From IMG/VR virus record IMGVR_UViG_2541047941_000006: a DNA stretch of 23,448 bases; one strand, given 5' to 3'. The translations under genes were made by a program, and so were the position numbers. Under the pieces are notes generated by a model. The model was given only the letters and a program-made list of their open reading frames with translations, did no database searches and was not told the DNA's origin. Positions 2,827 through 18,690 of this stretch are shown piece by piece (the first letter of the stretch is position 1; each line of letters begins with the position of its first letter). The DNA is from a virus. Taxonomy: Duplodnaviria > Heunggongvirae > Uroviricota > Caudoviricetes.

Positions 2827-3330
2827 TTATTGATAGTGTTTTATGTTCAGATAATGCCCGATGACTTTGTCATGCAGCTCCACCGATTTTGAGAACGACA
2901 GCGACTTCCGTCCCAGCCGTGCCAGGTGCTGCCTCAGATTCAGGTTATGCCGCTCAATTCGCTGCGTATATCGCTTGCTGATTACGTGCAGCTTTCCCTT
3001 CAGGCGGGATTCATACAGCGGCCAGCCATCCGTCATCCATATCACCACGTCAAAGGGTGACAGCAGGCTCATAAGACGCCCCAGCGTCGCCATAGTGCGT
3101 TCACCGAATACGTGCGCAACAACCGTCTTCCGGAGACTGTCATACGCGTAAAACAGCCAGCGCTGGCGCGATTTAGCCCCGACATAGCCCCACTGTTCGT
3201 CCATTTCCGCGCAGACGATGACGTCACTGCCCGGCTGTATGCGCGAGGTTACCGACTGCGGCCTGAGTTTTTTAAGTGACGTAAAATCGTGTTGAGGCCA
3301 ACGCCCATAATGCGGGCTGTTGCCCGGCAT
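2827..3330 (-). CDS. insB: IS1 InsB (expressed as InsAB' by -1 frameshift)
   Basis: 167-aa ORF overlapping the insA 3' end in the -1 frame, canonical IS1 arrangement. Confidence 0.85.
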
Positions 3331-12832: not shown

Positions 12833-12892
12833 AATTAATTCCTTTAGTTTGAATTGACTGTTAATCAGTCTGTTAAGTTGATTGCTTATTGT

Positions 12893-12901
12893 TAAAGAGC
12901 G
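12893..12901 (-). promoter_or_regulatory. boxA-like element (candidate nutR) between cro and the YdaT-like gene
   Basis: Minus-strand CGCTCTTTA matches the boxA consensus; a small hairpin GACUG-AUUAA-CAGUC lies 22 nt downstream (12856-12870) as a possible boxB. Confidence 0.35.
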
Positions 12902-12913
12902 TGAAATGGAAAT

Positions 12914-13144
12914 TTAAGCTGCGTTCTTTTCGGTGTGTGGAAACAACTTCGGAAGGTCCGGGCGAATCTGGTATGCCTTCACAACTCCACCAGTAGCCGT
13001 AACAATGCTGCCGACATGTTCAGGGGATACCTTTGCTTTGTTGTGAAGCCACTTATAGACGGCCTGCTGTGAAACTTCGCAGGCATCGCCCAGTTTCTTT
13101 TGTGAACCAACGATATTGATCGCTGTTTTGATTGCTGGGTTCAT
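12914..13144 (-). CDS. cro: Cro-like repressor (YdaS/Cro family HTH)
   Basis: 76-aa ORF divergent from cI with RBS GGAGG; HTH segment QKKLGDACEVSQQAVYKWL. Confidence 0.8.
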   Translation of the reverse strand: MNPAIKTAINIVGSQKKLGDACEVSQQAVYKWLHNKAKVSPEHVGSIVTATGGVVKAYQIRPDLPKLFPHTEKNAA

Positions 13145-13158
13145 AACAACCTCCGTGG

Positions 13159-13207
13159 TTAATCTGAATCAAGATTAAAACTATGGTTGTTTTTAGTCAA
13201 CAACCAT
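13159..13207. promoter_or_regulatory. OR operator region with two palindromes, overlapping the PR promoter for cro
   Basis: Perfect palindromes ATGGTTGTT-N7-AACAACCAT (13183-13207) and TTAATCT-N6-AGATTAA (13159-13178); minus-strand -35 TTGACT (13195-13200) and -10 TAATCT (13172-13177) ahead of cro. Confidence 0.5.
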
Positions 13208-13213
13208 TTTCGT

Positions 13214-13242
13214 TTGATGTAATAAAACCCTGGTTGTACATT
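13214..13242 (+). promoter_or_regulatory. Putative PRM promoter giving a leaderless cI transcript
   Basis: -35 TTGATG (13214-13219), 17-bp spacer, -10 TACATT (13237-13242), then 6 nt to the cI ATG at 13249; no SD sequence. Confidence 0.4.
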
Positions 13243-13248
13243 TGGTCT

Positions 13249-13938
13249 ATGAAAACAACACTCTCAGAAAGACTTAAAGAAGCCAGATTAGCGCGAGGCC
13301 TTACACAAAAGGCGCTTGGGGATTTGGTCGGGGTTAGCCAAGCTGCTATTCAGAAAATCGAAACAGGGAAAGCTAACCAAACAACTAAAATCGTGGAGAT
13401 CGCGAACGCTTTGGGTGTGCGCGCAGAATGGTTATCTTCTGGCGTTGGAAATATGTCAGACAGTACAGTGCAACCAATACAATCAACTGTCAGCCATTCC
13501 AAATACTTTAAGATTGACGTTCTTGATATAGAAGTGAGTGCCGGGCCGGGAGTCATCAACCGTGAGTTTGTAGAAGTTCTACGCTCGGTTGAGTACTCGT
13601 TTGACGATGCTCGTCACATGTTCGATGGTAGGAAGGCAGAAAATATCCGCATCATTAACGTGCGTGGTGACAGCATGTCAGGAACGATCGAACCAGGTGA
13701 TCTGCTGTTCGTTGATATCACGGTTAAATCTTTCGACGGTGATGGTATCTATGCGTTTCTGTATGACGACACAGCCCATGTAAAGCGCCTGCAAATGATG
13801 AAGGATAAGCTGCTGGTTATCTCTGATAACAAAAGCTACTCACCGTGGGACCCGATCGAGAAAGATGAGATGAACCGGGTATTTATCTTCGGGAAAGTTA
13901 TTGGGAGCATGCCGCAGACGTATAGGAAGCATGGATAG
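13249..13938 (+). CDS. cI: CI-type prophage repressor (HTH plus S24 LexA-like autopeptidase domain)
   Basis: 229 aa from ATG 13249 (track ORF starts upstream at 13183); N-terminal HTH (LTQKALGDLVGVSQAAIQKIETGK); C-terminal peptidase motifs (VRGDSMSGTIEPGDLLFVD ... HVKRLQ). Confidence 0.85.
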   Translation: MKTTLSERLKEARLARGLTQKALGDLVGVSQAAIQKIETGKANQTTKIVEIANALGVRAEWLSSGVGNMSDSTVQPIQSTVSHSKYFKIDVLDIEVSAGPGVINREFVEVLRSVEYSFDDARHMFDGRKAENIRIINVRGDSMSGTIEPGDLLFVDITVKSFDGDGIYAFLYDDTAHVKRLQMMKDKLLVISDNKSYSPWDPIEKDEMNRVFIFGKVIGSMPQTYRKHG

Positions 13939-14006: not shown

Positions 14007-15080
14007 ATGGAGAACTTAATGGATACTTTAAAATATGAGAAATTCTCTGATTTTGATCACAATGACCCATTTTTTGACTCTTTAAAAAAAGATTATAAAG
14101 AGTTTCCTCTTTGGTTAGAAAAAAAAGCCAGAGAAGGAGAATCAGCTTATGTGCTCTATGATGACAAGCATAAAATCGAAGGTTTTATGTATCTAAAAGA
14201 AAATGATGATGCAAATGACATTAATCCAGCGCTCCCACCAGGACGTCATCTAAAGATAGGAACATTCAAATTTGAATCTAAAGGCACCCTTCGCGGACAA
14301 CGATTTCTAAAAAAAGCGTTTGACCATGCATTTTCATCAAAATCTGATGATATTTATGTTACTGTTTTCGACAAACACGTCCATCTAATAAAACTTTTCC
14401 AAACGTACGGATTTTACATTCATGGTGAAAAAGAAACACATAACGGGAAAGAGTTTGTATATGCGAGGTCTTTGCATGAGCCTTATGGTGATATTTTATT
14501 AGATTACCCTCGAATAATGACATCAAGGGCCAACAAATATTTACTGGCGATTTATCCCGAATATCACACTAGACTATTCCCTGATTCAAAACTTGTAAAT
14601 GAATCACCAGATATTGTCAAAGATATATCCCATGCTAACAGCATTCATAAAATTTACATATGTGGAATGCGTTCTGTGATGGGAATGAAAAGAGGAGATA
14701 TCATTGTCATCTATAGAACCGGAGACAAAAAAGGGCCAGCTCGCTATCGTTCTGTAGCCAGTACATTATGTGTAGTTGAGAGCGTAAAAAATATTTCTGA
14801 ATTTTTAAGCGAAGATAGTTTTGTAGACTATTGTATTCGTTTTAGCGTATTTTCTGAAGATGAACTCAGAAAAATCTATAAAGAACGTCGATACCCTTTC
14901 ATTATAAGATTCACATACAATCTGTCTTTGCCAAAGAGACCCAATCGTGCTATTTTAATAGATCATGTGGGGCTAAATGGTTCGCGTGCATTCCGATGGA
15001 GTCACTTTAAACTCACAAATGAGCAGTTCTTAAAGATCATCGAGTTAGGCAAGATAAATGAAAGTTTTATTATCCATTAA
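14007..15080 (+). CDS. Hypothetical 357-aa protein: N-terminal GNAT-like acyltransferase region fused to a C-terminal PUA-like region (candidate exclusion/defence effector)
   Basis: Long AT-rich ORF directly downstream of cI (rexA position); GNAT-like motifs by eye (GTLRGQRFLKKAFDHAF; LFQTYGFYIHGE); C-terminal segment with PUA/ASCH-like strands (LLAIYPEYHTRLF; KRGDIIVIYRTGD). More likely start is ATG 14019 (GGAG 6 nt upstream). Domain calls are unverified. Confidence 0.7.
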   Translation: MENLMDTLKYEKFSDFDHNDPFFDSLKKDYKEFPLWLEKKAREGESAYVLYDDKHKIEGFMYLKENDDANDINPALPPGRHLKIGTFKFESKGTLRGQRFLKKAFDHAFSSKSDDIYVTVFDKHVHLIKLFQTYGFYIHGEKETHNGKEFVYARSLHEPYGDILLDYPRIMTSRANKYLLAIYPEYHTRLFPDSKLVNESPDIVKDISHANSIHKIYICGMRSVMGMKRGDIIVIYRTGDKKGPARYRSVASTLCVVESVKNISEFLSEDSFVDYCIRFSVFSEDELRKIYKERRYPFIIRFTYNLSLPKRPNRAILIDHVGLNGSRAFRWSHFKLTNEQFLKIIELGKINESFIIH

Positions 15081-15435
15081 GCCTGAGTTTGCAGAAAAAA
15101 TATTGAACGGAACAAAGCGGTTCGAGTTTCGTAAAGGTATATTCAAAAATCCGCAAATTAGCACCGTTGTTATTTATGCCACGATGCCATTAGGTAAAGT
15201 TGTTGGTCAATTCCGTATTGAATCAATACTAAGTGACGAACCGGAATCTCTTTGGAAAAAGACGGAAAAACACGCAGGTATTTCTAAGCAATTTTATGAC
15301 TCATATTATTCAGGTAGAGAAAAGGCCTACGCAATAAAAATTGGTGAAGTGGAAAGATATAAAGAACCAATTCCTATCTCTGCTCTAGGGAGTAATATTA
15401 AGCCACCACAATCATATCTTTACCTACCTGCGTAA
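15058..15435 (+). CDS. ASCH-domain (PUA-like) protein, 125 aa, translationally coupled to the upstream gene
   Basis: N-terminus MKVLLSIKPEFAEKILNGTKRFEFRK matches the ASCH beta1/GxKxxExR signature; start overlaps the upstream gene by 23 nt; AT-rich. Confidence 0.7.
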   Translation: MKVLLSIKPEFAEKILNGTKRFEFRKGIFKNPQISTVVIYATMPLGKVVGQFRIESILSDEPESLWKKTEKHAGISKQFYDSYYSGREKAYAIKIGEVERYKEPIPISALGSNIKPPQSYLYLPA

Positions 15436-15439
15436 GAAT

Positions 15440-15466
15440 CCCGGCCACCGTGCCGGGTTTTCTTTT
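15440..15466 (+). terminator. Intrinsic terminator closing the cI-cassette operon
   Basis: CCCGGC-caccgt-GCCGGG hairpin followed by TTTTCTTTTG, 5 nt after the ASCH gene stop. Confidence 0.6.
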
Positions 15467-15590
15467 GTCCCCTCATCACACAAACCGTTCAAATAACCAC
15501 CACGACATCCCTTCAGTTATCGCTATGCGATGCAAGTCACAAAATAAATCCATCCTAAATACAACCAGTTATATCTAAAACAACCAGTAA

Positions 15591-15633
15591 AACAACTTTT
15601 GTTGTTGACGATAAAACAACTATAGTTTTAAAT
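15591..15633 (+). promoter_or_regulatory. OL operator / PL promoter region
   Basis: Palindrome AACAAC-TTTT-GTTGTT (15591-15606) shares the AACAAC half-site with OR; -35 TTGACG (15605-15610), 17-bp spacer, -10 TTAAAT (15628-15633); more AACAAC repeats at 15561-15620. Confidence 0.45.
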
Positions 15634-15739
15634 AAATTCATCGCAACAACACAACGATACGGCAACCACCTGATTCACCGTTGCGATGACCGCTTAGATC
15701 CGCAGCTTGAATTTCAGCAGGCTCCGGGGAGTGCGAGGG

Positions 15740-16117
15740 GTGAAGCGGACGCGTGAACGTCGGTGTGACCAGCTGAAATCAACTCAACACTTCATACCTC
15801 AGTCGCTTCAACGAGGCGGCTTAGTTATGACAACCGGCGGCCATCCACCGCCTGAATACGCGCAGAAGTCTATATATGTTCAGCAGCCCAGCTTACGGGC
15901 AGGAGTTTTTATGGTTCATCAACATTACGGAACGCAGACCGTTAATCGCGGTGCGGTCATGCCAGGAATGCTGGTCAAACACAAAGATGGTACCTGGACT
16001 GCATCAGCTAATTTACGCGGACGACTTTATCTGCATCGCGGCATTGAGCGCACTTATACCCGTGACTTGCTCGTGGAAGTTTTTCTCGACGGACGCGGCA
16101 ACGGTCTGAATCACTAA
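15740..16117 (+). CDS. Possible N-like antiterminator (arginine-rich motif), start uncertain
   Basis: ORF in the first position of the PL operon; in-frame GTG at 15740 preceded by GGGGAG gives an N-terminus MKRTRERRCDQLKS resembling the lambda N arginine-rich motif; rest is basic and low-complexity. The first in-frame ATG with a strong RBS is at 15908, which would give a 69-aa protein instead. Confidence 0.35.
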   Translation: MKRTRERRCDQLKSTQHFIPQSLQRGGLVMTTGGHPPPEYAQKSIYVQQPSLRAGVFMVHQHYGTQTVNRGAVMPGMLVKHKDGTWTASANLRGRLYLHRGIERTYTRDLLVEVFLDGRGNGLNH

Positions 16118-16192
16118 TCCCCTTTCCTGTTTTCCGAATCAGCCTGGCATTCCGCGGGCGATTTTTTCACAGCCATTTTCAGGAGTTCAGCC

Positions 16193-16489
16193 ATGAACGC
16201 TTATTACATTCAGGATCGTCTTGAGGCTCAGAGCTGGGCGCGTCACTACCAGCAGATCGCCCGTGAAGAGAAAGAGGCAGAACTGGCAGACGACATGGAA
16301 AAAGGCCTGCCCCAGCACCTGTTTGAATCGCTATGCATCGATCATTTGCAACGCCACGGGGCCAGCAAAAAAGCCATTACCCGTGCGTTTGATGACGATG
16401 TTGAGTTTCAGGAGCGCATGGCAGAACACATCCGGTACATGGTTGAAACCATTGCTCACCACCAGGTTGATATTGATTCAGAGGTATAA
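16193..16489 (+). CDS. gam: Gam (RecBCD inhibitor), GamS-length
   Basis: 98 aa [60 protein letters not shown]..., near-identical to recalled lambda Gam; RBS AGGAG. Confidence 0.9.
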
Positions 16490-18592: not shown

Positions 18593-18690
18593 ACATGAAA
18601 AGCAAAATCATCAGGGAGCTACAGGCTCCTTTTTTATTATTCGCATTCACCCTCAAGCGTATTAACCAACAATTCAGGGATTAATGAAAG

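Follow-up and report, generated by a model that had tools for sequence, protein, structure and literature searches.

What does a lambdoid prophage carry between its early left promoter and gam when little room is left there? In the stretch of DNA analysed here (the window, 23,448 nt), a single open reading frame fills most of this interval. A first-pass annotation took it for a possible N-type antiterminator with a non-ATG start, lying in a region without ral, cIII or kil. The question is whether this frame encodes an antiterminator, another early protein or nothing at all over part of its length.

The window is a lambdoid prophage of E. coli. Its minus strand carries cro (12914-13144), a cII-like gene, O, P, ren, nin genes and a Q-type antiterminator. 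The plus strand carries, in order, a cI-like repressor (13183-13938), a two-gene moron (14007-15435), a terminator, OL/PL, the ORF in question, gam, bet and exo. The terminator closes the immunity-region operon (cI-like repressor, 357-aa protein and ASCH protein) just 5' of OL/PL. The operator repeats at 15561-15631 are inverted matches to the cro/cI operator region at 13175-13215, so the interval holds PL. The PL hexamers align with TTGATA/TATTAT of phages with another immunity type, and by this alignment the transcript would start near A15640. OL/PL, a leader, a single real gene and the beginning of gam make up the interval. The features are as follows.

15440 to 15465, plus strand: intrinsic terminator, stem CCCGGC/GCCGGG and then TTTTCTTTTG
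15561 to 15633, plus strand: OL operators and PL promoter, with repeated AAAACAAC-type half-sites, putative -35 TTGACG (15605-15610) and putative -10 TTAAAT (15628-15633)
15638 to 15689, plus strand: 10-bp inverted repeat, TCATCGCAAC (15638-15647) and GTTGCGATGA (15680-15689)
15640 to 15910, plus strand: 5' leader of the PL transcript, about 270 nt; the part before the upstream ORF is probably untranslated
15740 to 15826, plus strand: arginine-rich in-frame stretch (GTG, KRTRERR...), judged non-coding
15792 to 15830, plus strand: conserved RNA hairpin, inner stem AGUCGCUUC with GAGGCGGCU, outer stem UCAUA with UAUGA
15827 to 15910, plus strand: upstream ORF MTTGGHPPPEYAQKSIYVQQPSLRAGVF, beginning at ATG 15827 and in frame with kil here
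15836 to 15852, plus strand: second small hairpin, GGCGG-CCAUCCA-CCGCC, inside the upstream ORF (codons G-G-H-P-P-P)
15901 to 15905, plus strand: kil Shine-Dalgarno sequence AGGAG, 5 nt 5' of ATG 15911, as read from the sequence
15911 to 16117, plus strand: kil, cell-division inhibitor of the KilR/phi80-Kil family, 68 aa, assigned by family and homologue matches
16109 to 16192, plus strand: lambda-homologous spacer, now non-coding, from alignment with lambda 33049-33339 and phage D2
16193 to 16489, plus strand: gam, short form (GamS, 98 aa), RecBCD inhibitor (Pfam PF06064), followed by bet and exo

The one real gene is kil. Its product matches PHROG_294, 'Kil protein for bacterial septation inhibition', over residues 1-68 (E 1.3e-37), and the NCBIfam model NF008465, 'FtsZ inhibitor protein' (E 1.8e-17), the latter under the subfamily cutoff (63 against 92 bits). 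With BLASTP, it is 36% identical to Rac KilR from Met1 onward (E 9e-13) and 41% identical to phi80 Kil (E 5e-16). Its position between PL and gam/bet/exo is that of an early-left gene. At the identical locus in E. coli M8, RefSeq calls a 68-aa 'phage encoded cell division inhibitor protein' and leaves the leader without a CDS, and the annotations of phages Perceval and 4A7 give kil/Gam with phi80-Kil homology. Rac KilR inhibits FtsZ and cell division (PMC12482147, PMC5793797), and by homology the window's protein is predicted to block division of the host cell. The start codon is most probably ATG 15911: Met1 of the Kil homologues in Rac, phi80, HK225, Citrobacter, Kluyvera, Enterobacter and other genera falls at this position, the ribosome-binding site is strong and unpaired, and the annotation agrees. 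Alignment thus makes the ORF a known non-N protein, with its C-terminal 68 aa belonging to the KilR family from ATG 15911. Neither its supposed N-like character nor the supposed lack of kil survives, since the ORF is itself a kil of the KilR/phi80 type.

The compactness of the region was correctly described. About 560 bp lie between the PL -10 and the gam ATG at 16193, and tblastn of the whole window found no homologue of lambda N, cIII, ral, ea10, sieB or lambda-type kil. The earlier statement that ral and cIII are missing is upheld, and N is missing as well. This PL-kil-gam layout is ordinary, common and previously annotated in related phages. We regard it as very probable that the region consists of a KilR-type kil behind a conserved leader, followed by a lambda gam module, with the 136-codon ORF a product of chance framing. 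On this reading, it is where the early-left operon begins in the N-less lambdoid prophage type of Escherichia phages 4A7, Perceval and IdasGreatGrand.

How, then, did a longer frame arise? The mechanical ORF (15707-16117) begins at a TTG and runs for 136 codons, and GTG 15740 lies in frame within it, followed by MKRTRERRCDQ. This ORF is a frame accident: the untranslated leader, the short upstream ORF and kil share one reading frame by chance in the window's copy. Other copies do not keep the frame. Of 51 near-identical leaders, 20 have a TAG at 15800 and three have a frameshifting 5-nt insertion near 15780; in the phage alignment, IdasGreatGrand and PhiR70_1 have the same TAG. The first 20 codons from GTG 15740 are intact in 48 of the 51 copies, which, being at least 95% identical, hold little evolutionary information. 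Variable sites within 15740-15799 fall four times on third, three times on first and once on second codon positions, too few for any inference. A short peptide might conceivably be translated from GTG 15740, because a GGAG stands 8 nt upstream as a plausible Shine-Dalgarno sequence and those 20 codons are nearly always intact.

Protein searches gave the same picture. The translated leader had 37 matches among 5.8 billion proteins, all of them from this same locus, and the few proteins that take in the arginine-rich part are chimeras made by deletions. A tblastn search of 50,697 phage genomes found the arginine-rich stretch only in the same 16 phage records that share the leader. The N families of Pfam, PHROG and NCBIfam gave no match for the ORF, and tblastn of the window with lambda N, phi80 N and HK022 Nun returned nothing. 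The idea that the leader contains a remnant of N was also considered and rejected, as the protein search and the phage tblastn returned the same leader alone.

It was suggested that the ORF is an N-type antiterminator translated from GTG 15740, with its arginine-rich motif binding a boxB-like hairpin in the leader. KRTRERR, which is present if translation starts there, is similar to TRRRERR in the arginine-rich motif of lambda N, and the GGAG is suitably placed for such a start; one relative has ATG at the 15740 position. The likeness is one of composition, which is no proof of function, and in this frame the C-terminal half is Kil. A peptide of 20 residues would be without the NusA- and RNAP-binding parts of N, the stop codon and insertion described above interrupt the frame, and it has no homologue among N proteins or elsewhere. 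So the arginine-rich N-terminus exists as a string of codons, but it is not conserved as a protein.

RNA sites for N tell against this proposal as well. A perfect boxA does occur at 12889-12900 on the minus strand, 3' of cro, and the PL and PR leaders have two short motifs in common. However, this boxA belongs to the PR side and has no PL counterpart: with up to three mismatches allowed, none occurs in the PL leader, which also lacks a stem-pentaloop hairpin or canonical boxB, its sole extra hairpin having an 8-nt loop (z -1.8). The PR-side hairpin is missing from the closest relative, IdasGreatGrand, and phages with the same leader and another immunity type have cro and cII just 30 nt apart, without a nut site between them. 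No N-like ORF was found in the PR operon (cro, cII, O, P, ren, nin genes and Q). An N-type protein from GTG 15740 is thus extremely improbable, and the apparent new antiterminator is a frame artefact over a known kil. On its left arm, the phage probably does without N-type early antitermination.

One point counts against the reading favoured here: left transcripts would have to pass a strong terminator-like site at 18613-18631 in the PL operon, and no antiterminator for it was found.

The leader in front of kil is widespread and well conserved. From about 15641 it is 98% conserved, also where the operators differ, and 2210 of 5426 complete E. coli genomes (about 40%) carry it, nearly always with at least 95% identity. 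No CDS is annotated under it in the 40 E. coli records listed. The part from 15641 to 15790 is specific to the window's group of E. coli prophages. Relatives in Citrobacter, Kluyvera, Enterobacter and other genera have kil directly after PL behind unrelated leaders, and so supply no covariation data for 15641-15790. Folding of 15641-15790 in sliding windows was no better than that of shuffled sequences (z about -1.9 to +1.4), and 15635-15830 as a whole was not more stable than its shuffles (z -1.1). Along the leader, unusual stability appeared only at 15780-15860, over the hairpin at 15792-15830.

The inverted repeat at the start of the leader had been reported earlier, and it is indeed perfect over 10 bp with its second arm at 15680-15689, but the first arm lies at 15638-15647 and not at 15637-15646. 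In the RNA, the two arms would pair as an 8-bp stem at the very 5' end, closing a 32-nt loop (dG -8.6, z -1.3). A comparable repeat arises in 2.6% of shuffles of the interval. Phages of the 4A7 type keep 8-9 pairs, some of them G-U. In leader variant L024, the first 33 nt are replaced and the repeat is cut to about five pairs.

Another possible explanation for the conservation of the leader is that 15641-15790 is a cis-acting antiterminator RNA, like put of HK022, which would take the place of N in these phages. In its favour, N is missing, the leader starts where transcription is predicted to start and persists across immunity types, it is very widespread, and the operon has the terminator-like site downstream at 18613-18631. 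Use of put-like RNAs has also been suspected in N-less lambdoid phages (PMC12315714). A put covariance model was built from HK022 putL, HK022 putR and HK639 putL, and it recovers all three at 71-99 bits. Applied here, it found nothing in the leader, and its best matches in the window (E 0.6-0.9, 12-13 bits) lay inside O and bet. A search of the leader for the HK022-type put motif gave no match. Rfam produced no hit in the whole window at gathering thresholds and only chance-level hits in a permissive scan of 15560-16200. The chance-level folding of 15641-15790 also argues against a structured RNA, as do the lack of a second copy or related element on the PR side, the replacement of the first 33 nt in L024 and an IS3 element tolerated inside the leader of one prophage. 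Taken together, a put-like role for this leader is quite improbable.

The only well-supported RNA element of the interval is the hairpin at 15792-15830. Its predicted stability is -15.6 kcal/mol (z -4.5), which none of 200 shuffles reached. The hairpin was compared across 31 distinct variants, taken from viral contigs that had been retrieved by a 23-nt pattern overlapping the final four bases of the outer stem. Standard pairs occupy 97% of the pair cells, and compensatory changes are seen at seven pairs. The covariation score was reached by none of 500 shuffles, and slid controls were only 24-42% paired. The hairpin buries the GAGG of the upstream ORF in its inner stem, and the AUG in the UAUGA arm of its outer stem.

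This upstream ORF is part of a widespread block. Its first 24 nt are near-invariant in phi80, HK225 and HK639. The segment 15791-15852 is found in phi80 just after N and the terminator tL1A, inside the annotated t-L1, and it also occurs in HK639 and, directly 5' of kil, in HK225. Among 105 viral contigs, the block stands right after an intrinsic terminator in 63 and after a window-type leader in 36. Tentatively, the first 24 nt of the ORF may also be a site where deletions and module exchanges tend to end. In many phages, the upstream ORF ends in ...EVLY despite middles of varying length, and in others the frame differs. The ratio of C to G peaks over the same region, at 1.8 for 15780-15857. 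The second hairpin, inside the ORF (dG -8.9, z -2.2), is annotated as a terminator in HK639. An intrinsic terminator within the upstream ORF was rejected for the window: a T-run follows the second hairpin in six of the 105 contigs and is absent in the window.

We propose that the hairpin, the upstream ORF and the C-rich block may work together as a regulatory cassette, limiting or gating how far the toxic kil and the downstream recombination genes are expressed. It could act through translation-dependent read-through or through Rho-dependent termination, as for Rac kilR. Cardinale et al. in 2008 are said to have found that Rac kil is silenced by Rho. Expression of kilR in Rac is NusG-dependent (PMC5793797). 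Together, these two points make Rho- or translation-dependent control of kil by the cassette reasonable to suppose. A more specific version is that 15792-15910 is an undescribed attenuator, built from a covarying hairpin over the start of a short ORF, near-invariant MTTGGHPPP codons that double as a GC hairpin, and a tract rich in C. In many lambdoid phages, such an attenuator would gate kil and the recombination genes by read-through coupled to translation of the leader peptide, possibly sensing EF-P or translation via PPP, or by Rho access, and it would be the sole control of the left operon in N-less phages. We put this forward tentatively, as a minority possibility.

Could the hairpin instead control the form of Kil? 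In 34 of 35 window-type contigs, the upstream ORF is fused in frame to kil, and from these frames a 96-aa Kil isoform could be made. On this account, Kil would be mainly or partly a 96-aa long form from ATG 15827 and the hairpin a switch on the amount or form of Kil, which would fit both the strong covariation over that start codon and the 95-96-aa protein called in many database entries. However, phages Turner and PhiR30_1 have a 1-nt deletion and a 1-nt insertion, respectively, between 15827 and 15911, and both break the fusion while kil stays intact. Most other contexts, phi80 and HK225 among them, have an upstream ORF that stops before the next gene or is in another frame. Homologues from Rac, phi80, HK225 and other genera begin at the position of ATG 15911, whose own ribosome-binding site is strong and unpaired. 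A long Kil is thus unlikely, less so than a put-like leader and far less so than an N-type protein, and the 68-aa Kil from ATG 15911 stays the preferred product.

At the other end of kil, the sequence changes to lambda. Homology begins at about 16109, and the spacer up to gam is a remnant of the lambda kil 3' end and the N-terminal coding region of GamL. This agrees with the earlier observation that the sequence 5' of gam resembles the lambda kil/GamL leader with frame-breaking changes. A 1-nt insertion near 16176 breaks the GamL frame, and with tblastn GamL residues 10-36 and 29-138 match in two different frames. A weak terminator-like site is located at 16142-16159. Lambda Kil and the window's Kil both end in CAC TAA at the same distance from gam, and the lambda homology begins there. 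Two modules thus meet at the kil stop codon, by an exchange at a gene boundary and not by a deletion inside the interval. Of the deletion or recombination junction previously placed here, the recombination junction just 5' of gam was thus confirmed, and the deletion was not.

The gam gene itself is ordinary. It matches Pfam PF06064 over positions 1-98 of 98 (E 3.4e-65) and is 94% identical to lambda Gam residues 29-138. The 138-aa GamL cannot be encoded, with a TAA at 16115 in frame with gam in addition to the insertion near 16176. In lambda, GamL starts within kil, the gene that has been exchanged here, so only the 98-aa Gam is possible. The first-pass reading that only the short Gam is present was therefore right.

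The main value of this analysis is a correction: the supposed N-type gene is the well-known kil, in a layout that is known and annotated. Two points might interest phage biologists. One is how a common, N-less lambdoid group gets its early-left transcripts past downstream terminators, and the other is the role of the covarying hairpin and short-ORF cassette before kil.

The closest known systems include 15 sequenced phages in which the region is 91-98% identical, among them 4A7, 4C10, Perceval, IdasGreatGrand, Turner and the PhiR series. In these and in D2, the identity extends across the interval through leader, kil and gam. 4A7, 4C10, Perceval and D2 are filed under Bievrevirus, and IdasGreatGrand, Turner and the PhiR series have no genus in their records. 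IdasGreatGrand and Turner have the same operators as the window, whereas most of the related phages have other immunity modules and different morons at the rexAB position; small indels and the stop codon in the leader also set relatives apart from the window. In D2, the same leader runs up to the kil ATG and continues from there into lambda sequence (a truncated cIII, then kil and GamL), indicating that gene-boundary exchange occurs at that point too.

Compared to lambda, the window has the same OL/PL architecture, gam, bet and exo at least 94% identical, and 84 bp before gam that are homologous to the lambda kil-3'/GamL region. It differs in the absence of N, nutL, tL1, sieB, ral, ea10 and cIII, in the loss of the GamL start and frame, and in the exchange, exactly at the stop codon, of lambda's unrelated 47-aa Kil for a KilR-type Kil. 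Rac KilR and phi80 Kil are homologous to the window's protein over their full length from Met1, are of similar size (68-73 aa), belong to PHROG_294 and occupy the same place in the early-left operon, 5' of the recombination genes. In phi80, however, kil follows N, tL1 and other ORFs, whereas in the window it is the first gene after PL. In Rac, the sequence upstream of kilR is unrelated to the window's and contains the sRNA KilS.

Two RNA-based systems offer looser comparisons. The put RNAs of HK022 and HK639 are, like the window's leader, cis elements in the PL leaders of N-less lambdoid phages, but the leader matches them in neither sequence nor structure, without their two-stem structure or a PR-side copy. 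Attenuators of the pyrBI type, with a leader peptide, resemble the cassette in having a short ORF with a GC hairpin, followed in a few of the phages by a T-run. In such attenuators, coupled translation of a leader ORF keeps the terminator hairpin from forming. In the window, the hairpin has no T-run after it, and any function of this kind would be putative.

The short ORF upstream of kil, which opens at ATG 15827 and begins MTTGGHPPP, starts with a 24-nt block that is near-invariant across phi80, HK225 and HK639, while the sequence flanking it has diverged. The left end of three independent deletion chimeras in the protein databases lies inside this block or immediately past it. MTTGGHPPPE is joined to the C-terminus of Bet in one of these proteins, MTTGG to Gam in another, and MTTGGH to an orf61-like protein in the third. 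The block may be a recombination or deletion hotspot. Its position and those of other short elements in the PL and PR transcripts are as follows.

15827-15850, PL transcript: 24-nt block ATGACAACCGGCGGCCATCCACCG
15701-15715 and 15777-15789, PL leader: short motifs CGCAGCTTRAATTTC and AATCAACTYAACA
12909-12923 and 12871-12883, PR transcript (minus strand), past cro: second copies of CGCAGCTTRAATTTC and AATCAACTYAACA
12889-12900, minus strand: perfect rrn-type boxA GCTCTTTAACAA
~12852-12866, PR side: hairpin GACUG-AUUAA-CAGUC
16142-16168, kil-gam interval: weak terminator-like hairpin followed by a T-run (GCCTGGCATTCCGCGGGC GATTTTTTCA)
18613-18640, PL operon: strong intrinsic-terminator-like site, 8-bp stem and T-run

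The two short motifs shared by the PL leader and the PR transcript occur in the same order in both, but their spacing differs (61 nt in the leader vs 25 nt on the PR side). This sharing could be due to chance or could be a vestige of common ancestry. The boxA lies just 3' of the cro stop, is the only perfect one within the window, and is accompanied by neither a partner boxB nor N. IdasGreatGrand, the closest relative, retains this boxA but lacks the nearby hairpin. In phages of the 4A7 immunity type, the gap between cro and cII is only 30 nt.

In lambda, the counterpart of the hairpin region in the kil-gam interval is a homologous stretch encoding part of GamL. The stronger terminator-like site is flanked by an orf61-like gene and a DksA/TraR-like gene, and no early antiterminator capable of reading through it was identified.

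Elsewhere in the window, lambda's rexAB position is occupied by genes for a 357-aa protein and a 125-aa ASCH-domain protein (14007-15435). This pair matches the PADLOC candidate defence system PDC-M11 (PDC-M11A, E 2e-133; PDC-M11B, E 7e-52), whereas related prophages carry different morons there, such as a SIR2-family gene. The prophage probably also contains an insertion sequence, since an ORF past the lysis genes (2827-3330, minus strand) matches the transposase family phrog_720.

In RefSeq, the Rac prophage of E. coli K-12 has an annotated small RNA, KilS (L147 2406-2503), which lies some 175 nt 5' of kilR in the same orientation; KilS is unrelated in sequence to the window leader. In phage D2 (L009 3392-3520), the kil RBS and ATG of a window-type leader are joined to lambda cIII midway through its coding sequence (MRKLRDGWK...), giving a cIII truncated at its N-terminus, with lambda kil and then GamL downstream. 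Some other prophages of Enterobacteriaceae, from Citrobacter and Kluyvera (L012, L015-L018), resemble the window in having kil directly after PL, without N, but their leader is different. About 190 nt 5' of kil, they carry a long stem, GCTTCGCGGTGGTG ... CACCACCAGCGAAG, with another hairpin enclosed in it, an arrangement that may represent a separate type of structured leader RNA.
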